This document shows positions 6,148 to 18,990 of a DNA stretch of 47,370 nt, piece after piece (within the stretch, counting starts at the first letter, position 1; the number at the start of each line of letters is the position of its first letter). Source of the stretch: a virus. The notes under the pieces were generated by a model, which saw only the letters and a list, made by a program, of their open reading frames with translations, searched no databases and had not been told where the DNA came from. The position numbers and the translations under genes were made by a program. The stretch spans positions 1 to 47,370 of IMG/VR virus record IMGVR_UViG_3300045988_092515. The stretch is one strand, 5' to 3'.

Positions 6148-6366
6148 ATGACACTGACAGAACTGCAAGACAAATTGGGTGAGCAAATCGAGCTGCTTTC
6201 TGATAAGGAAACTCCACACAAAGCCAAAAAGGAACTCGCTGACGTTGCTATGGTAATCTCGTCATTGGCCAAACAAATGATTAACAACGCAGATGTTGTC
6301 CTTCGCACAGAAAAGCTAGTTTCCGAGGGAAAATTGAAAGAATCGGAAATCAAGAAAATGCTGTAA
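6148..6366 (+). CDS. Hypothetical protein
   Basis: AAGGAG RBS and a 72-aa helical ORF. Confidence 0.45.
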   Translation: MTLTELQDKLGEQIELLSDKETPHKAKKELADVAMVISSLAKQMINNADVVLRTEKLVSEGKLKESEIKKML

Positions 6367-7109
6367 TGGGCGGGAAGAAGTACACTCAGGAACAAGTGGA
6401 CTGGATAGGTTGCAATTTTGCAGCCTATCCTACCACAAAAACGCTCACAGAAGCGTTTAATCTGCAATTCGGGGAAAGTAGGACGGAAAGCTCAGTTGCT
6501 CAAACAGCTACTAGAAGGTGCGGCTTAAAGCGCTGGCCCCGTCAATGCTTCACCGAAAAAGAAAACGCTTGGCTTATCGAGAATTATAGCAAAATGAAAG
6601 CCGAGCTTCTGACGGAAAAATTTTGTGCCAAATTCGGACATAAGTGTAAACCGAGGACTATTATCGGGCATTGCAACAGTATTCTAGGCATCCATTCAGG
6701 TAGAAAAAATTTTCCAAAAGGAAACACCCCTTGGAAAGTTTGTGATATTGGGCAAGAAAAGAAAGGGAGTAACGGCTATACTCTCGTGAAAGTCAGCAAC
6801 AAAAAAACGACAAGGGAAAGTAAGGACAGGCACGATAATTGGAAGTTTAAACATATCCTTATTTGGGAACAACATCATGGAAAAGTACCAAAAGATCACA
6901 TGGTTGTTTTTTTGGATGGAGATAGAGAGAATTTTTCTATCGAAAATTTAGCGTGTATCCCATTGCGTTACGCTGGAATAATGGCTAGAAATAAATGGAA
7001 CGGAAAGGGAGGGATAACAAAAACAGCCGTGAAATGGTGTGAGTTGCATTTTGCTATAAACGATGTAAAGGAAAAACGGCTTGCACAGCGAGAAATGGAG
7101 GAAGAATGA
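6366..7109 (+). CDS. HNH homing endonuclease
   Basis: GYTLVKVSN...HILIWEQHHGKVPKDHMVVFLDGDRENFSIENLACIP (HNH_3-type motif). Confidence 0.75.
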   Translation: MGGKKYTQEQVDWIGCNFAAYPTTKTLTEAFNLQFGESRTESSVAQTATRRCGLKRWPRQCFTEKENAWLIENYSKMKAELLTEKFCAKFGHKCKPRTIIGHCNSILGIHSGRKNFPKGNTPWKVCDIGQEKKGSNGYTLVKVSNKKTTRESKDRHDNWKFKHILIWEQHHGKVPKDHMVVFLDGDRENFSIENLACIPLRYAGIMARNKWNGKGGITKTAVKWCELHFAINDVKEKRLAQREMEEE

Positions 7110-9908: not shown

Positions 9909-10106
9909 ATGGATGATTTCGACAAGAAGGTTCTTCTTTCGCTGGAAAAGAACCGGATGATGATTAGCAAGGTGGCGCGGGAACTGTTTTGTCATCGGCA
10001 CACTATCACCTATCGCCTGGATAAGTTGAAGAAGGAAACGGGCGTTGATCCGTTGGAAGTACGGGGTCTTGTGGCCCTGCTTGATAGAATTGGAGGGCAG
10101 GCTTGA
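9909..10106 (+). CDS. Small helix-turn-helix protein (PucR C-terminal HTH-like)
   Basis: ISKVARELFCHRHTITYRLDKLKKETGVDP. Confidence 0.55.
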   Translation: MDDFDKKVLLSLEKNRMMISKVARELFCHRHTITYRLDKLKKETGVDPLEVRGLVALLDRIGGQA

Positions 10107-10603
10107 AAGAGGTGTGGCTGCCGATTCCCGGCACTGACGGGTGGTATGATGTTTCTAATTTCGGCGAAATCCGAAGCTGGATAAAACAACGTTGGGACCA
10201 TTCCAGAGAAAGGGCTGAAAATCCACGAATCATGCGCCAACAGTCGCACAACGGAAACGCCACTATTAAAATTGCTGGTAAAACAATTCGAGTAAAAGAT
10301 GTTGTGTGTGATGTTTTCCTTGGCGGGAAACGGGTGGGCATGATCCTACGGCACAAGGACGGAAATTATCAAAATTGCGCGGTAAATAATTTGGAGTTTG
10401 TAACAAGGGCGGACTTCAACAAGGAGCGCAGAAGCCCAAATTGCCGAATTGTGGCCAAGACGGACAAATGGGGTAAGGTGCTGAAATTCTATCCCAGTGC
10501 AAGGGCTGCTGCGCGGGAAAATTACCTATCCACAAGCGGCTTGCACAGACGAATTAGAAATAAGTCGTTCATCGACGGCGTGATTTTCAAATATGCTGAT
10601 TAA
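10103..10603 (+). CDS. HNH homing endonuclease with an N-terminal NUMOD4-like motif
   Basis: EVWLPIPGTDGWYDVSNFGEIRSW, then HKDGNYQNCAVNNLEFVT. TTG start overlaps the upstream stop. Confidence 0.7.
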   Translation: MKEVWLPIPGTDGWYDVSNFGEIRSWIKQRWDHSRERAENPRIMRQQSHNGNATIKIAGKTIRVKDVVCDVFLGGKRVGMILRHKDGNYQNCAVNNLEFVTRADFNKERRSPNCRIVAKTDKWGKVLKFYPSARAAARENYLSTSGLHRRIRNKSFIDGVIFKYAD

Positions 10604-10669
10604 CAGATGGACATATTGTCCAAAGAATTAGCAAAAACACAGATTTTCGTGGAACGATACGGTAGAATA

Positions 10670-10678
10670 TGGTATAAT
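10670..10678 (+). promoter_or_regulatory. Extended -10 promoter element (TGGTATAAT) at the head of the non-coding RNA locus
   Basis: tggtataat at 10670-10678, with a second tagaat at 10663-10668. No good -35 was seen. Confidence 0.4.
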
Positions 10679-10803
10679 AATAGCAAGGAAGTCTTTGTCC
10701 TTTCGGGCTTCCGCATGCTTCTTCCGCCGGGTGGCGGCGGCAATAGCCACCCCTCCTATTTGGTATAGGGGCGGGGGTTCTTCCCCTGCCCCACCCTCCA
10801 TAT

Positions 10804-10852
10804 CCTGGGCGCTGGTGTGTATGATTTGGTTCAATCCCGAATCCCAGGACCA
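10804..10852 (+). ncRNA. tRNA-like acceptor/T-arm minihelix ending in an encoded CCA
   Basis: CCTGGG(c) ... 14 nt ... TTTGG-TTCAATC-CCGAA-(t)CCCAGG-A-CCA. There is no D arm or anticodon arm. Confidence 0.4.
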
Positions 10853-11238
10853 TCCCGAAAGGGAAAAAATAAAATACGAAAGGTGGTGAAAGCTTTGCTC
10901 CTACCATCATTTTGTGTTTTGTTTTTCAGCACCTAACCAAGCGCGGCGAGCGTCCTATTATCTGGCACGGTAGGGATGCCACGACCCGCGCAGGTTGGGA
11001 TATATGAAAGAACGCCGCCGGATAACGCAAGGGTGTGTCACCAGCGTCTTCGACGTGGCAGTTGCACCGGGAGTTCTTTCTATATGCTGGCTATCGGTGC
11101 AGGAGCCAATAGCTGGCTTTCCGCTCTGTCGGTTCTCTTTTTTGTTTCCATAGGGAATGCTCCTTCGGTAAGCTGCAGCCTGTAAAAGCAGCTCCATCAC
11201 TCACCTGGTGGCCCCGGTTGGATTCCGGTTAGGCATAC

Positions 11239-11326
11239 GGCGGGATACTCAAGTTTGGTCAAAGAGGCCGCATTGCTAATGCGGTATGGGCTACAGCCTG
11301 CGTAGGTTCAAATCCTACTCCTGCCG
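11239..11326 (+). tRNA. tRNA-Ser, anticodon GCU (class II, long variable arm)
   Basis: Acceptor GGCGGGA/TCCTGCC with one G-U pair. D arm CTC-AAGTTTGGTCAAA-GAG. Anticodon arm CCGCA-TTGCTAA-TGCGG, with GCT at 11275-11277. Variable arm GGGC-TACA-GCCT. T arm GTAGG-TTCAAAT-CCTAC. Discriminator G. Confidence 0.8.
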
Positions 11327-11680
11327 CCGGATGGGTTGTGGTGTAATCCCCTGAAACACCTGGCACCACGGAAAGGCGGGGATATATGCGGAAGGGCTAG
11401 TAGGGGCGTCACCGGATTGGTGAACTGGGTTCAAGGCCCAGCGACTGCACTGTATACAGTAGCCGATGAATGTACTAAGTCGGCGATTCCCCACGGTGGA
11501 ACACTGTTGCGTGTGTGTACAGCACCAACACCGCTGTGGGGCAATATGGCGGGTGGCGATAGCCTATATCCGGGTAGTTACCGGGGCCTGCTACCAGAAT
11601 AGCGGTTAGCATTTGCGGATGCTGGGGCGATGGAAACCCGCCCTGACAGCTCGGAAGAGACGGGCGTAGGAGGATAAAAT

Positions 11681-12841
11681 ATGGAAATCAGAAGCGTGAA
11701 AATTAAAGAGATCAAACCGTATGATCGAAATGCCAAGAAGCATGATGATACCCAAATCAACAATGTGGCTGAAAGCATCCGACAGTTCGGTTTTGTCCAG
11801 CCTATCGTGATTGATTCCAATGGCGTTATCGTCATTGGACATTTCCGTTTTGAGGCGGCTAAGCGGCTGAAATACGCCGAAGTACCCTGCATCATGGTGG
11901 ACGATCTAACGCCTGAACAGGTGGACGCCCTGCGTATCGTGGACAACAAAACCAACGAATCCCCATGGGATATTGATTTGCTGACCGAAGAGTTGCAGGA
12001 TTTGGATTTGTCCATGTTTGATTTTGCATGGGATTTGATGGAGGAAACGGACGAAGCTACCGAAATTACAGAAGATGAAGCACCGGAGGTTGATAAGACC
12101 AACGATCCTATTTCTAAGTTTGGCCAAATTTGGAAGTTGGGCCGTCACCGGCTGATGTGTGGAGATAGCACCTCCGAAGAAAACGTGAAAGCTCTTCTGG
12201 GGGGTGCGAAAGCTGACCTTCTTCTTACTGATCCTCCGTATGGCGTGGACTATACTGGCAAGACTAAGGATGCCTTAAAAATCCAGAACGACGCAAAGAT
12301 GGACGAAGAAATGATCGAATTTCTTTCCTCTGCTTTTCGCTCTGCGGATTCCGTTATGAAGCCTGGGGCTGTGTTTTACATCTGGTATGCTGGAATGAAA
12401 GAACATGCTTTCGATAAGGCTTGCCAGCTAATCGGCTGGGAGGTTCGCCAAATCCTTATTTGGGCAAAAAATACCATGGTAATGGGGCGGCAAGATTACC
12501 AGTGGAGACATGAACCCTGCATTTACGGGTGGAAAGGCGGCGCTGGACACCTCTGGGCGTCCGACCGAAAGCAGACAACGATTCTGGAATTTGACCGTCC
12601 TACCGCGAACAAAGAACATCCTACAATGAAGCCGATTGCGTTGTTCGATTATCAAATTCAGAACAACACAAAAGGCGGTGACATCGTTCTGGATCTGTTC
12701 GGCGGAAGTGGGACAACCATTATGGCTTGTGAACAGAATGGAAGAAACGCATGCGTGATGGAATATGATCCTAAATACGTTGATGTTATCATCAAGCGCT
12801 GGGAAAACTTCACCGGAGAAAAGGCGGTTTTGGAAGGATGA
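11681..12841 (+). CDS. Fusion of a ParB-like nuclease domain to a DNA methyltransferase (beta-class N6A/N4C)
   Basis: N-terminal IKEIKPYDRNAKKHDDTQINNVAESIRQFGFVQPIVID...GHFRFEAAKRL. Then motif IV LLLTDPPYGVDY and motif I VLDLFGGSGTTIMA. AGGAGG RBS. Confidence 0.85.
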   Translation: MEIRSVKIKEIKPYDRNAKKHDDTQINNVAESIRQFGFVQPIVIDSNGVIVIGHFRFEAAKRLKYAEVPCIMVDDLTPEQVDALRIVDNKTNESPWDIDLLTEELQDLDLSMFDFAWDLMEETDEATEITEDEAPEVDKTNDPISKFGQIWKLGRHRLMCGDSTSEENVKALLGGAKADLLLTDPPYGVDYTGKTKDALKIQNDAKMDEEMIEFLSSAFRSADSVMKPGAVFYIWYAGMKEHAFDKACQLIGWEVRQILIWAKNTMVMGRQDYQWRHEPCIYGWKGGAGHLWASDRKQTTILEFDRPTANKEHPTMKPIALFDYQIQNNTKGGDIVLDLFGGSGTTIMACEQNGRNACVMEYDPKYVDVIIKRWENFTGEKAVLEG

Positions 12842-14510: not shown

Positions 14511-15913
14511 TGGAGAGTTTTTTTACTAGGACGTTCCGAAATCTGAAAAACTGGCTGTTTCCCACTGTTGCCGCTAAAAAAGATTTTGGCGTAGATACGG
14601 CGGTTGGTACCACGATGCAGCAGAATATCAACCTGTGGTATTCTATGTACATCAACGAACCGCCTTGGGCCAAGCGCGACATTATCCCGCTCGGCCTGCC
14701 TGCTGCTATCGCCCGTGAAATGGCGCGGCCTGCACTGGTGGAATTCAACGGAACAGTTACCGGCGGGGCACGGGCTGAATTCTTGGATACGTGTTTCCAG
14801 GATGCCGCCCGGAGCTTTGAGAAAAACTTGGAGATGGGGCTTGCTCTCGGTGGGCTGGCCCTTCGGCCTTATGTGTACAACGGCGCGTTGAAAGTCGATG
14901 CTTCTAGTATCATGGCATTTCAGCCTACCAACTTCGACGAAGCTGGCAAATGCACCGGTGGCGTATTCCGCGAGCGGGTGCAGCTGGCTGGTAAATGGTA
15001 CGTCCGCCTGGAAAGCCATGAGTTTGTGAGAGATGGAGATCGCACAGCCTACGTTGTGCGGAACAAAGCTCACAAGTCCAATCAATACGGAACGGTGGGC
15101 GAGGAAGTACCGCTCGATACGGTCCCAGCCTGGGCAACCTTGGATGATGAAACAACACTCGATGGCGTAGAACGTCCGCTGTTTGCCTTTTTCACCCCGC
15201 CTGTTGCAAACAACATCGACACTGATAGCCGCCTGGGTGTATCTGTGTACGGCGGTTCTATCGTCGGCCTAGTAAAGGATGCAGATGAACAGTGGGATAG
15301 ATTGTGGTGGGAGTTCAAAAGCGGTGAGCGCAAAATTTTTGCAGAATACACCAGCGGGAACGCCCGTGATTTTGGGAGAAACCGGCTCTATGAGTTTGGG
15401 CCGTTTATGTCCCAGGATGGGGATTTCTTCAAGGAGTTTTCCCCGGCGTTTCGGGATGATGCCATTTATAGGGGATTCCAAAACATCCTGAAACAAATTG
15501 AATTCCAGACAGGCCTAGCCTATGGAACGATTTCTGACCCGTCCAGCGTGGAAAAAACATCGACGGAAATCTTAGCTAGCAAGCAGAGACAATACATTAC
15601 AGAGAGCCATATTCAGCAGGCGTTCGGGGATGCTCTGGACGATCTGGTATATGCGATGGATGTATACGCTACACTGTACGCCCTGGCTCCTCAGGGGGAC
15701 TATGAGCTGCATCTCAGTTTCGGCGATGGTGTACTCGATGATCCTGAGAGCAACCGCGCAGAAATGGCGGCTGACCTGCAACTGGTATCTGCTGGTATCC
15801 TGAACGCCTATGAATTCCGACAGAAACATTTCGGCGAGGATGAAGAGACAGCAAAGGCCATGCTACCAGGGATGGAGGAAATGATCGACGAACCACAAGG
15901 GGAACTTGAATAA
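14510..15913 (+). CDS. Portal protein (A118 gp6/SPP1-type)
   Basis: 467-aa ORF directly after terL with a TAATG overlap. The call rests on size and synteny with the minor capsid protein 2 gene. Confidence 0.7.
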   Translation: MESFFTRTFRNLKNWLFPTVAAKKDFGVDTAVGTTMQQNINLWYSMYINEPPWAKRDIIPLGLPAAIAREMARPALVEFNGTVTGGARAEFLDTCFQDAARSFEKNLEMGLALGGLALRPYVYNGALKVDASSIMAFQPTNFDEAGKCTGGVFRERVQLAGKWYVRLESHEFVRDGDRTAYVVRNKAHKSNQYGTVGEEVPLDTVPAWATLDDETTLDGVERPLFAFFTPPVANNIDTDSRLGVSVYGGSIVGLVKDADEQWDRLWWEFKSGERKIFAEYTSGNARDFGRNRLYEFGPFMSQDGDFFKEFSPAFRDDAIYRGFQNILKQIEFQTGLAYGTISDPSSVEKTSTEILASKQRQYITESHIQQAFGDALDDLVYAMDVYATLYALAPQGDYELHLSFGDGVLDDPESNRAEMAADLQLVSAGILNAYEFRQKHFGEDEETAKAMLPGMEEMIDEPQGELE

Positions 15914-16713
15914 TGAAGTACCCATTCAGTCCTGCCGTGTTGGATGCCTTGCCTGAGCCTATCGCCGAGCTATTCCGGGGCCTGGAAGATCGGCTGCTAC
16001 AAGAGATTTGTTGGCGGCTGGTGGTATCCGATGATCTGAATCAGGTGACTGTCGAGGATATCCGGGAACTGCGTGCCCACGGGATAACGCTAGACGAAAT
16101 CACAACAGCCATTGCAGAGACTACGCAAACCAGCCTGGACAAGGTAGATGCTATCATGGATGGCGTAGTAGAGCGCAATCGCAAATACTACGGTACATTA
16201 GCAACTGCGGCAGAGATTACCGCCCCGCGCCACATTGTTGATGATGTGGATGTTGAGGCTATCAGGCGGCAGACCAAAGACGAACTGCGAAACCTTACTC
16301 AATCAATGGGCTTTGCAGTCCGACGCAACGGCAAGGTTGTTAAGTGGTTGGAACCCAAGAAAGCTTATCAATGGGCGCTGGATATGGCAGAAACAGAAGT
16401 TATGTCCGGGACTATCAGCTACAATGAAGCAATAGCCCACGCCACAAAGCAGCTTGCCGCCGGTGGTTTAACGTCTATCCGCTACGAATCCAATGGGCGG
16501 GTACATTACGATCAAGCGGATGTAGCCGCTCGACGTGCTGTGATGACTGGGGTGAATCAAACCTGCCAGCGCTATGCAGAGCAGAGCATGGAGCGACTGG
16601 AAACCAACCTAGTCGAAGTGTCCGCCCATGGCGGCGCAAGAAATGTAAACGGTCCGAATGGCTGGGAAGCACATACTCTGTGGCAAGGAAAAGTTTTCCA
16701 ATGGAATAAATAA
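15913..16713 (+). CDS. Minor capsid protein 2 (Phage_min_cap2-like), N-terminal part of a split gene
   Basis: ...AARRAVMTGVNQTCQRYAEQSMERLETNLVEVSAHGGARN...HTLWQGKVFQ, followed by a premature stop. The remaining conserved blocks resume at 17427. Confidence 0.7.
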   Translation: MKYPFSPAVLDALPEPIAELFRGLEDRLLQEICWRLVVSDDLNQVTVEDIRELRAHGITLDEITTAIAETTQTSLDKVDAIMDGVVERNRKYYGTLATAAEITAPRHIVDDVDVEAIRRQTKDELRNLTQSMGFAVRRNGKVVKWLEPKKAYQWALDMAETEVMSGTISYNEAIAHATKQLAAGGLTSIRYESNGRVHYDQADVAARRAVMTGVNQTCQRYAEQSMERLETNLVEVSAHGGARNVNGPNGWEAHTLWQGKVFQWNK

Positions 16714-16721
16714 GTTTGATA

Positions 16722-16806
16722 CAAGCGGATAGCTCGACGGGGTGAAAAGTGGACTGCCTTACCATCTTCCGCTTGTTCAAAAAACAAGGCAATTACGAAA
16801 GGCAGT
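16722..16806 (+). promoter_or_regulatory. Interleaved (pseudoknot-type) pairings upstream of the homing endonuclease start
   Basis: CAAGCGGA (16722-16729) pairs with TCCGCTTG (16768-16775). ACTGCCTT (16753-16760) pairs with AAGGCAGT (16799-16806), which covers the SD region 3 nt before the ATG at 16810. Confidence 0.3.
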
Positions 16807-16809
16807 AAT

Positions 16810-17481
16810 ATGGCAAGAATGATTGATATAAGTGGTAAAAAATACAACAGGCTTACCGCAATAAAACCAATCGGAAGAAGAAAATCTGGAAATTATATAT
16901 GGTTGTGCAAATGTGAATGTGGTAAATTTTGCGAAGTAGAAGGAAGTCTATTACGAAGTGGAAAACAACTAAGCTGTGGTTGTTACATATCAGAACGTGT
17001 CACAAAAATGAACACGAAACACAACGGATTTGGGACGCGACTTTACGAAATTTGGAGACAAATGCACAGAAGGTGTTACGGCGAGTTCCAACAGAGCTAC
17101 AAAGATTATGGGGGCCGCGGGATTTCTGTTTGCGATGAATGGCATGATTTTTCTGTATTCAGAGAATGGGCTTATAAAAACGGCTATTCAGAAACGCTTA
17201 CAATAGATCGGATTGACGTAAATGGAAATTACGAGCCTTCTAATTGTAGATGGGCGACCATGAAACAGCAAGCTAACAACAGAAGAAGTAACCACACAAT
17301 CAAATATATGGGTGTATCGCATACAATTTCTGAGTGGGCTGATATTCTTGGTGTTAATCAAACCACACTTTGGAAAAAACTTCAAATGAACAATTGGGAT
17401 TTATCTAAAGTGAAGGAGGTGGCAAAGTGGGAGAAGGAAAATACCCCGATTTCGTTAAATCGTGTGGATATGGCGATGTAA
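16810..17481 (+). CDS. Free-standing homing endonuclease (HNH/AP2-associated type) inserted in the minor capsid gene
   Basis: YNRLTAI...WLCKCECG...TRLYEIWRQMHRRCY...YKDYGGRGISVCDEW...TIDRIDVNGNYEPSNCRWATMKQQANN. Confidence 0.75.
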   Translation: MARMIDISGKKYNRLTAIKPIGRRKSGNYIWLCKCECGKFCEVEGSLLRSGKQLSCGCYISERVTKMNTKHNGFGTRLYEIWRQMHRRCYGEFQQSYKDYGGRGISVCDEWHDFSVFREWAYKNGYSETLTIDRIDVNGNYEPSNCRWATMKQQANNRRSNHTIKYMGVSHTISEWADILGVNQTTLWKKLQMNNWDLSKVKEVAKWEKENTPISLNRVDMAM

Positions 17482-18216: not shown

Positions 18217-18366
18217 AAAACCCAAATAACCTGAGCCTTTGAGCCAAGAATCAACTAAAACGTTGGTTTTTGGCTTATTTTTTATCTTTGACCGCCCCGA
18301 CGTCGTAAAACTACGGGCGACAGCGGATGCAACCCGCGTAAATAAGCGTAGTCGTGGGAGAGAACA

Positions 18367-18990
18367 ATGAAACGCGAATATCTAAAAGAGCTTGGCTTAG
18401 AGGATGAAATCATCGACAAGGTCCTTGCTGAGAATGGCAAGGATATCGAACGGGAGAAGGGCAAGGCTGAAGCTGCCAAGGCGGACGCCGAGAACCTGAA
18501 GACCCAGCTTGCCGACCGAGACAAGGATCTGGAAGAGCTGAAAAAGAACGCTGGTTCTGCCGATGAGATCAAGGCCCAGATGGATGAGCTGAAAGCCAAG
18601 TATGACAAAGACACGGAATCTTTCAAGGCGCAGATTGCGGAGAGAGACTATTCCGCCGCCGCTTCTGCTGCTATCACCGGCGCAAACGTCAAGTTTTCGT
18701 CCAAGGGCGCTGAACGCGCTTTTAGGGACGAACTGAAAGCTAAGGGCCTGACCCTGAAAGATGGCGCACTGGAAGGTTTCGATAACTTCCTGAAAGAACA
18801 GCGTGAAGCTGACCCCGGCGCTTTTGCATCTGATAAGCCTACCCCTTCCTTTGGCCGACCTGTCGGCGCGGGTGGTAAGGACAACGGTACCGAAAACATC
18901 GGTATCGCTCTTGCAAAAAGCATCGGTGCGGCTACCGCGCAGAACAACAAAACGTACAGCGACGTACTGTCGCAATATAAGGGAGAGTGA
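18367..18990 (+). CDS. Capsid scaffolding protein (Phage_GP20-like)
   Basis: MKREYLKELGLEDEIIDKVLAENGKDIEREK..., charged coiled-coil composition, and its position before the capsid genes. Confidence 0.7.
   Translation: MKREYLKELGLEDEIIDKVLAENGKDIEREKGKAEAAKADAENLKTQLADRDKDLEELKKNAGSADEIKAQMDELKAKYDKDTESFKAQIAERDYSAAASAAITGANVKFSSKGAERAFRDELKAKGLTLKDGALEGFDNFLKEQREADPGAFASDKPTPSFGRPVGAGGKDNGTENIGIALAKSIGAATAQNNKTYSDVLSQYKGE

Follow-up and report, generated by a model that had tools for sequence, protein, structure and literature searches.

A conserved gene-free interval in one lineage of temperate gut phages, read as an island of several small RNAs

A Proposed Compact Island of RNA Modules

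The virus record IMGVR_UViG_3300045988_092515 of IMG/VR, analyzed here over its whole stretch of 47,370 nucleotides (the window), is a temperate siphovirus-like genome, probably that of a phage of Firmicutes. Between positions 10604 and 11680 it contains a gene-free interval of 1077 nt; the next-largest gap of the window measures 379 nt (three internal open reading frames, ORFs, being discounted), in agreement with the first-pass annotation, which had singled the interval out as the largest non-coding gap. On balance, we read it as a compact RNA island, i.e., several separately folding RNA genes on the plus strand, and not as one RNA. We established the boundaries of its modules, the identity of a tRNA and of a DUF3800-VII RNA, the strong constraint on the sequence, the gain and loss of modules, and covariation in the tRNA and in the trailer that follows it.

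Four units may be distinguished. The first would be moron-like: starting from an extended −10 promoter of its own and ending at a strong terminator, it would give a small RNA (sRNA-1) of about 245 nt whose 3′ end is an acceptor/T-arm minihelix with ACCA. The second would consist of a long hairpin and then an orphan DUF3800-VII RNA, canonically the companion of a gene for a DUF3800 nuclease (RNase H fold). The third would be a functional tRNA-Ser(GCU); and the fourth, a hairpin-rich trailer of about 350 nt, with a second T-arm mimic, that would run into the leader of whichever gene comes next.

Relatives were gathered by way of the DNA-methylase gene that follows the interval, of DNA patterns, and of a metagenome scan. 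They amount to some 22 contigs from IMG/VR and some 18 from human-gut metagenomes (~24–47 kb, plus one of 154 kb with a prophage). These ~40 contigs, all of one lineage, carry the whole island, whose identity across relatives is 94–98%, against 65–98% for the adjacent HNH gene and 87–96% for genes farther upstream. Hence, this non-coding DNA is at least as constrained as coding DNA. In most relatives, homology ends exactly at the Shine–Dalgarno sequence (SD), and the downstream gene is an unrelated ORF of 80 amino acids (aa), not the methylase, which indicates that the island is its own unit and not a specific 5′ untranslated region. We found two alleles at a terminator stem (10884–10912) and two cassettes at 11390–11460. 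Moreover, clean natural deletions occur in otherwise intact relatives, removing 11389–11537 (149 nt), 11353–11466 (114 nt), or 11330–11359 (30 nt).

The first-pass annotation had proposed a large ornate RNA of the GOLLD/ROOL class or of a new one. We scanned the whole window with Rfam 15 at gathering thresholds and searched 10500–11800 by cmscan with permissive filters (E ≤ 10). At gathering score, the gap holds only the tRNA (54.8 bits) and DUF3800-VII (44.6 bits). The GOLLD model (RF01998) has no match in 10500–11800 at E ≤ 10 and none window-wide at gathering score; the ROOL model (RF03087) has none in 10500–11800 at E ≤ 10; and the same holds there for the tmRNA, RNase P, riboswitch, and group I/II intron models and for those of all other large RNAs. 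Membership in GOLLD or ROOL is therefore not borne out, and among the models that had been suggested for this region only that of tRNA responded. What stands of the earlier claim is a non-coding RNA locus with an embedded genuine tRNA. Four observations speak against the single RNA: a terminator inside the interval, 245 nt after the only visible promoter; a DUF3800-VII RNA that is autonomous in other genomes; the deletions of 30, 114, and 149 nt; and the lack of a long-range helix supported by variation. The prophage setting with a tRNA, which had been put forward as characteristic, is real (integrase, repressors, and terminase are encoded in the window, and the tRNA-Ser lies inside the interval) but not specific to GOLLD or ROOL.

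Beyond these, the permissive search gave only sub-threshold noise. A YrlA (RF02553) Y RNA call was discarded, as it reaches 20.9 bits where the gathering score is 69 and overlaps the T-arm of the real tRNA; and the mascRNA-menRNA model weakly matches the second tRNA mimic in the permissive search (E = 7.5).

The description of the interval as hairpin-dense holds in part. Indeed, segment 10680–10940 folds better than dinucleotide shuffles (z = −4.9), as does 10932–11000 (z = −3.7), but 10930–11240 and 11325–11685, taken whole, do no better than shuffles (z ~ −1.1).

The Predicted First RNA and Its tRNA-Like Minihelix

The elements of the first unit, in order, are as follows.

10650–10678, plus strand: putative promoter of the first RNA, with an extended −10 TGGTATAAT at 10670–10678 and a weak −35-like TGGAAC at 10650–10655
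10682–10800, plus strand: 5′ body of sRNA-1, with hairpins H1 (10682–10719), H2 (10729–10757), and H3 (10761–10800)
10803–10852, plus strand: tRNA-like minihelix, an acceptor-like stem CCUGG/CCAGG stacked on a 7-bp T-stem, from the sequence and the minimum free energy fold
10853–10864, then 10866–10927, plus strand: small hairpin, then a predicted intrinsic terminator of bidirectional type made of an A-tract, a hairpin, and the U-tract UUUUGUGUUUUGUUUUU

The extended −10, which had been noticed from the start, is unchanged in all but one of 31 distinct relatives, the exception reading TATAAC. The consensus promoter scan did not list this site because its −35 is poor; judged from its letters, 10650–10678 is a putative promoter, with a predicted transcription start near 10685. 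In the 5′ body, we recovered both GC-rich hairpins previously described: CCGCC-GGGT-GGCGG, which occupies 10724–10737, and GGGGCGGGGG-TTCTT-CCCCTGCCCC at 10768–10792, which is the GC-rich core of H3. H1 shows a compensatory pair (G-C to A-U in three sequences) and wobble-preserving changes, while H2 and H3 are invariant.

The minihelix at 10803–10852 was confirmed, as was its CCA end. It totals 12 bp, carries a canonical T-loop (UUCAAUC), and finishes with a discriminator-like A and then an encoded CCA (10850–10852). It has neither D arm nor anticodon arm but only a 4-bp stub, and every variable stem position is still paired in the relatives, bar one singleton. Its T-loop motif is one of three in the gap: GGTTCAAnnCC was found, as announced, at 10828, 11305, and 11428 (the last had been placed at 11427). 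The degenerate form GGTTCRANNCC has three matches on both strands of the 47-kb window, all of them in the gap and on the plus strand, with a chance mean of 0.97 per window. The minihelix and a second mimic in the trailer (10803–10852 and 11409–11450) receive no tRNA call from ARAGORN at default settings or from Rfam at E ≤ 10; the tRNA-like part is a T-arm in both and, in the first only, also an acceptor stem.

The terminator at 10866–10927 has a folding energy of −23.8 kcal/mol (z = −5.1) and was missed by a simple consensus scan because of its internal loop. Its hairpin is stable and stands directly before the U-tract, so that Rho-independent termination is predicted. The second natural allele, with another stem sequence at 10884–10912, keeps these properties (ΔG −22.6, z = −4.5). 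The statement that no clear terminator precedes the gene at 11681 is thus correct for the last ~500 nt, but it overlooked this strong internal one. From promoter to terminator, sRNA-1 is predicted to be an RNA of about 245 nt with moron-like architecture.

An Orphan DUF3800-VII RNA

The second unit and its surroundings comprise three elements.

10932–10999, plus strand: long irregular hairpin of ~26 bp that ends with GGG and then AUAUAUG (ΔG −34.2, z = −3.7)
11007–11084, plus strand: DUF3800-VII RNA (Rfam RF02967), 44.6 bits against a gathering score of 36.2, full length over model positions 1–90
11086–11148, plus strand: hairpin 11086–11118 followed by the U-rich tract UUCUCUUUUUUGUUU (ΔG −16.5 to −18)

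The long hairpin is a possible processing stem; six of its pairs vary one-sidedly with pairing kept, and three pairs include broken cells. Downstream of the RNA, hairpin 11086–11118 folds no better than shuffles (z = −0.85), and its 3′-arm variants keep or improve pairing, with one compensatory pair and a C.A to C-G change in 6 sequences. Element 11086–11148 is possibly a weak terminator, or a spacer after DUF3800-VII.

The DUF3800-VII score of L034 is 44.4 bits, and the L001 copy lies under the gathering score; in the gut contigs L084 and L094, the scores reach 55.9 and 62.3 bits, respectively. The window copy keeps the three-stem architecture of the family and shows compensatory changes in two stems with respect to the out-group copies of L084 and L094, namely A-U to G-C in stem P2 and G-C to A-U in the second internal hairpin; these differences and the model score validate it independently. 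Inside the lineage, this second internal hairpin also undergoes a C-G to U-A change plus wobble changes. At position 11066, the G shared by the 29 other distinct relatives is replaced in the window by an A, which creates a C.A mismatch in P2; either a recent mutation of slightly deleterious effect or an error of assembly probably accounts for this A.

The paper that introduced the DUF3800-VII motif already noted its association with a DUF3800 gene (Weinberg et al. 2017, PMC5737381). DUF3800 is reported to have an RNase H-like fold and to be linked to mobile elements and defence systems, with companions that include Cas12a2/a3 and a Cas13-kinase operon (PMC10910872, PMC13594972, bioRxiv 10.64898/2026.08.25.746378). 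In the window, we found no PF12686 match among 39 ORFs (Pfam), and a tblastn search with the DUF3800 protein of L094 returned on the window only a 9-aa tail overlapping the RNA motif. No promoter dedicated to DUF3800-VII is visible in the window either. In L084 and L094, on the contrary, the RNA is a stand-alone gene with a TTGACA-17-TATACT promoter, and in L094 its P1 stem and a U-run form the terminator, the RNA being convergent to the DUF3800 gene. The canonical member of L094 is thus autonomous, with a sigma-70 promoter and a terminator, beside a skipping-rope RNA and an integrase; the window copy has neither DUF3800 gene nor promoter of its own and is embedded among other RNA modules.

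The region 900–3545 of L094 holds a complete canonical DUF3800 locus: a PBECR3 nuclease gene, a skipping-rope RNA (76.7 bits), the DUF3800 gene, the convergent DUF3800-VII RNA with its promoter, three GGTGTTGGTAGC repeats, a tyrosine integrase, and a tRNA-Leu(CAG). L084 has the RNA, promoter, repeats, and integrase in common with L094 and diverges beyond the RNA. Moreover, an unrelated bacterial intergenic region of non-gut metagenomes (L110, 2989–3120, and L088) displays a 22-nt DUF3800-VII 5′ core, AAGAACGCCGCCGGATAACGCG, and then a long perfect hairpin; it has no Rfam match at gathering score and is either a divergent relative of DUF3800-VII or a product of chance.

The tRNA-Ser, Its Leader, and the Trailer

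The remaining part of the island, up to the start of the next gene, contains the following elements.

11135–11238, plus strand: tRNA leader block, directly 5′ of the tRNA, with small hairpins including CCGG-UUGGAUU-CCGG
11239–11328, plus strand: tRNA-Ser(GCU), class II, with a long variable arm and G73 (ARAGORN; Rfam, 54.8 bits)
11329–11667, plus strand: structured trailer, also 5′ leader of the next gene (RNAalifold and pair counts)
11333–11349 and 11366–11381, plus strand: trailer hairpins (RNAalifold and pair counts)
11409–11423, plus strand: anticodon-arm-like hairpin of the trailer
11425–11441, plus strand: T-arm mimic of the trailer, with T-loop UUCAAGG
11449–11460, 11462–11484, and 11486–11545, plus strand: palindromic hairpin, hairpin, and long hairpin of the trailer
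11547–11593, 11608–11623, 11624–11644, and 11649–11665, plus strand: further trailer hairpins
11668–11683, plus strand: SD (AGGAGG, 11668–11673) and start (ATG, 11681) of the methyltransferase gene, where the island ends

Over the whole window, ARAGORN at default settings predicts one gene, the tRNA-Ser(GCU) at 11239–11328, and the class II tRNA-Ser of the first-pass annotation is thereby confirmed. Its CCA is not encoded, its anticodon stem and T stem show compensatory changes among relatives, and AGY codons make up 37–49% of the Ser codons of the phage. The leader block, of about 100 nt, is nearly invariant, with 1–2 variable columns only among 30 distinct sequences.

Lowering the ARAGORN thresholds yielded candidates that we rejected. 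No tmRNA is found by default, whereas relaxed settings give one at 11058–11450 with the tag AAPSLTWWPRLDSG*; as tmRNA calls number 2 at ps90 and 25 at ps80 across the window, such calls arise at background frequency. The degenerate cloverleaves at 10726–10796 and 11157–11238 also correspond to the background rate (33 per 47 kb).

The ~350 nt that follow the tRNA had been suggested as a possible part of a large RNA, and they do show real base-pair covariation. In the alignment of tRNA and trailer (24 distinct sequences), compensatory double changes affect 13 of the 126 predicted pairs, 8 of the 13 lying outside the tRNA, and 99.4% of the cells are paired. None of 500 column shuffles reached the observed level, and slid-partner controls gave 0–3 pairs. 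The changes in the trailer come from few linked cassette alleles and hence represent few independent events. Covariation among related phages is clear in these parts and weak elsewhere: in sRNA-1 and the DUF3800-VII segment, none exceeds shuffle controls within the lineage, because these sequences are nearly invariant. What variation they have is nearly always pair-preserving, with many switches between G.U and G-C or A-U, and breaks are mostly singletons.

The second tRNA-like element (TL-d, 11409–11441) is deleted in several relatives. The trailer also contains a perfect palindrome, ACTGTATACAGT, whose form in the second allele, ACGGTACCGT, is preserved by compensatory changes. A junction motif, GGG(G)-(C)A(A)UAUG, occurs at the 3′ foot of three hairpins (10997–11006, 11379–11388, and 11537–11546) and is perhaps a shared processing signal; at 11379–11388 it repeats the GGG(G)AUAUAUG of the long hairpin at 10932–10999. 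The 149-nt deletion (11389–11537) joins two copies of this motif, which suggests microhomology recombination there.

Long-Range Pairing and Alternative Readings

Folding of the whole region with RNAalifold nests long-range stems, among which 11196–11234 with 11562–11606. These two blocks are the most invariant of the island and are mutually complementary (~24 bp in colinear segments, including GGCCCCGGU/ACCGGGGCC); they bracket the tRNA and the dispensable modules and could form a processing stem. Among 9440 windows the partner 11562–11606 comes first, and it outscores all 1000 shuffles; near-equal partners exist elsewhere in the genome, and the sole informative variant (G11585A, in L095) favours a local hairpin over this pairing. 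Two other pairings, 10739–10760 with 11543–11564 and an anti-SD pairing of 10718–10728 with 11663–11673, were rejected, their pairs being lost in majority alleles.

These stems bear on the reading of the interval as one ornate RNA of ~1 kb, of a new class with a GOLLD/ROOL-like lifestyle, in which the tRNA would be embedded and the terminator and motifs would be domains. We consider it unlikely. Co-inheritance and high conservation of the interval as a unit, the presence of one visible promoter only, the enclosure of the tRNA, as in some GOLLD loci, and the long-range stems, with the first-ranking partner just described, all speak in its favour. However, neither GOLLD nor ROOL is matched at E ≤ 10, the terminator survives an allele swap together with its A and U tracts, DUF3800-VII is a self-contained gene in other genomes, and losses of 30–149 nt are tolerated; moreover, the best long-range partner has near-ties, the L095 variant points to the local hairpin, and the majority allele breaks pairs in the other long-range pairings. 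Alternatively, the interval might be mainly a DNA-level element, i.e., a cos/pac site, a late-promoter or regulator-binding region, or a recombination hot spot in which the tRNA and sRNA are merely lodged. The position directly upstream of the packaging module, the adjoining HNH endonuclease, blocks more invariant than RNA stems would predict, the perfect palindrome, and the assembly ends of ~8 of 22 IMG/VR contigs within ~3 kb would fit such an element. Those ends are scattered, though (~8.3, 9.7, 10.1, 11.2, and 13.5 kb in window coordinates) and not focal, on which ground a cos site was rejected; RNA hairpins are kept by compensatory changes, the second palindrome allele included; all elements, T-loops and DUF3800-VII among them, share one strand polarity; and the promoter/terminator architecture indicates transcription. 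A DNA-level element is accordingly an improbable explanation of the whole.

Decay of a phage tRNA array, with only the tRNA-Ser and perhaps DUF3800-VII still functional and the tRNA-like pieces as roleless pseudogenes, is quite improbable. It would explain two T-arm mimics without full cloverleaves, the loss of TL-d in several relatives, and the degenerate cloverleaves seen at low ARAGORN threshold, yet the latter come at the background rate. Indeed, decay is hard to reconcile with an island conserved above the neighbouring protein genes, with stem substitutions that are overwhelmingly pair-preserving and in several cases compensatory, or with a minihelix that retains perfect 12-bp and ACCA geometry. 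Finally, the gap could encode a small protein, for which the three longest internal ORFs are the candidates (107 and 80 aa on the minus strand, 88 aa on the plus strand). None of the three has a Pfam or PHROG match, there is no third-codon-position excess across them, and those of 88 and 107 aa are frameshifted or truncated in many relatives, in line with the earlier view that the ORFs of the gap are not credible genes. The 80-aa ORF (10958–11200) is uninterrupted in 18 of 20 relatives and has a mild third-position excess of changes (17 of 36), but it stays open because the stretch is nearly invariant, its SD is poor, and it is antisense to an Rfam-validated RNA with covarying stems. A small protein is thus very unlikely.

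How the Island May Work

If the island does consist of several RNAs, sRNA-1 would be made from its own promoter, and units 2–4 by read-through or by late transcription. Host enzymes (RNase P, RNase Z, and the CCA-adding enzyme) may recognise the tRNA and the two mimics and cut the precursor into stable pieces, which would gain stable, tRNA-like ends; the sites made of a stem plus AUAUAUG are possible further processing punctuation. The tRNA-Ser(GCU) would help to read the many AGC/AGU codons. Acting in trans, the mimics and the orphan DUF3800-VII RNA might serve as regulators or decoys for host factors, with host DUF3800 nucleases or tRNA/CCA-directed defence as speculative targets.

Several points weigh against an island of several RNAs. 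We infer the promoter, the efficiency of the terminator, and the processing alike, and no promoter is visible for units 2–4, which would thus need read-through of a strong-looking terminator or an unrecognised phage promoter. Covariation of the sRNA-1 and DUF3800-VII segments within the lineage stays at the level of shuffle controls, and a role at the DNA level could explain their extreme invariance just as well; in the trailer, the compensatory changes are few independent events in few linked cassette alleles. Both tRNA mimics fail every tRNA model, and one allele of the second closes its acceptor only weakly. In addition, the complementary invariant blocks 11196–11234/11562–11606 could point to a larger fold that surrounds the tRNA.

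Taken jointly, DUF3800-VII, the minihelix, the T-arm mimic, and the tRNA-Ser might form an anti-defence set of RNA decoys, a reading that we regard as quite improbable. The orphan DUF3800-VII would mimic the RNA partner of host DUF3800 nuclease systems and neutralise them, by analogy with pseudo-ToxI against ToxN. The minihelix, the T-arm mimic, and the extra tRNA-Ser could, speculatively, absorb or replace the targets of tRNA- or CCA-directed immunity. Such immunity includes anticodon or acceptor-end nucleases, nucleotidyltransferase toxins, and the collateral tRNA cleavage by Cas13/Cas12a3 that yields CCA signals.

Relation to Known Systems

The island is of a known kind, the phage tRNA/sRNA cluster; what is new is the orphan DUF3800-VII member and the lineage-specific tRNA mimics. 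Phage tRNA clusters with small stable RNAs and homing endonucleases are exemplified by the tRNA region of T4, with RNAs C and D and segB. As in T4, a phage tRNA stands here beside small structured RNAs and a free-standing homing-type endonuclease gene, and processing by host enzymes is to be expected. However, the island has one true tRNA, its companions are truncated mimics and a DUF3800-class RNA, there is no sequence relationship, and the phage is temperate with a gut-anaerobe host. With GOLLD and ROOL, the island shares the prophage context, a tRNA placed beside or within the locus, and a long structured stretch that is rich in GC and devoid of ORFs, but it differs by the lack of a model match, the internal terminator, the modular and partly dispensable composition, and the restriction to one phage lineage.

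Acceptor/T-arm minihelices represent the minimal substrate geometry of RNase P and of the CCA-adding enzyme, and tRNA-like elements of processing and stability include the tRNA-like 3′ module of the mascRNA/MALAT1 type and the tRNA-like domain of tmRNA. Element 10803–10852 resembles them by its coaxial acceptor/T-arm of 12 bp, canonical T-loop, and 3′ ACCA; it lacks G3:U70, a tag ORF, and pseudoknots. Phage morons, for their part, are promoter-gene-terminator cassettes inserted between phage genes. sRNA-1 is similar to them in its constitutive-looking promoter and bidirectional terminator and in its location between two phage modules, and differs in its cargo, a non-coding RNA with a tRNA-like 3′ domain instead of a protein gene.

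DUF3800-VII is shown here in a further genomic setting quite unlike the first, a phage that lacks its usual nuclease gene, a configuration that trans action on a host protein would predict. Tightly conserved truncated tRNA mimics in a phage are candidates for hijacking tRNA processing or for interfering with tRNA-targeting immunity. This case also calls for caution, as a long, ORF-free, GC-rich phage interval that holds a tRNA should not be equated with GOLLD or ROOL before models have matched and internal terminators have been looked for. Unusual and conserved as the assemblage is, it belongs to one lineage and its covariation support is partial. As the lineage is abundant in human-gut metagenomes (~40 contigs), experimental material should be obtainable.

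Distribution and Genomic Setting

The pattern scans of IMG/VR from modules 1, 2, and 4 each returned the same 20–22 contigs, and a degenerate pattern scan added a single contig, L084, with DUF3800-VII only. The HNH-anchored search led to the same lineage, and an nhmmer profile of the whole island, run against all fetched loci, detected this lineage and isolated copies of DUF3800-VII only. Scans found no copy of the island in GTDB genomes, and blastn labelled as distant in INPHARED found no DNA relative among cultured phages. At the protein level, the closest large terminase (TerL) is that of Dulem virus 33 (64% identical), followed at ~50% by those of Clostridium, Eggerthella, and Oenococcus phages.

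The island is located between the replication/early genes and the packaging genes of these temperate, human-gut, Clostridia-type siphophages, which form one lineage. Upstream, a NUMOD4 + HNH_3 ORF (10103–10603, plus strand; Pfam) directly adjoins 10604–11680, and this gene of homing-endonuclease type accompanies the island in all relatives. Downstream lie a ParB_N + N6_N4 DNA-methylase ORF (11681–12841; Pfam) and then the genes of the small and large terminase. The window also encodes an integrase, helix-turn-helix (HTH) repressors, SSB, a G39P-type loader, and a dCTP deaminase. Three separate HNH-type endonuclease genes are present in this 47-kb genome: HNHc_6 at 10–714, HNH_3 at 6366–7109, and the NUMOD4 + HNH_3 gene.

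More distant ParB-methylase phages do not match the island profile and have other, shorter gaps. In three of them (L017, 3573–4000, and also L015 and L018; ~53% aa identity), the equivalent gap of ~430 nt contains a tRNA-Met(CAT), a TATAAT-like promoter, and a hairpin/T-run; this slot thus seems to receive RNA cargo quite generally.

About 8 of the 22 related IMG/VR contigs (063316, 069275, 072688, 073795, 085846, 095641, 103679, and 017001) end within ~3 kb of the island, at window equivalents of ~8.3–13.5 kb. These ends exceed the expectation for random breakpoints, yet they do not fall at one site; they may reflect cassette polymorphism that breaks assemblies, or proximity to the packaging start.

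Elsewhere in the window, Rfam detects an int-alpA RNA (RF02996) at 16722–16789 on the plus strand (54.5 bits against a gathering score of 35.8), between ORFs 15913–16713 and 16810–17481 in the head-morphogenesis region. A GP20-b RNA (RF03003; 46.9 bits against 36.2) lies at 18289–18350 on the plus strand, directly upstream of ORF 18367–18990.

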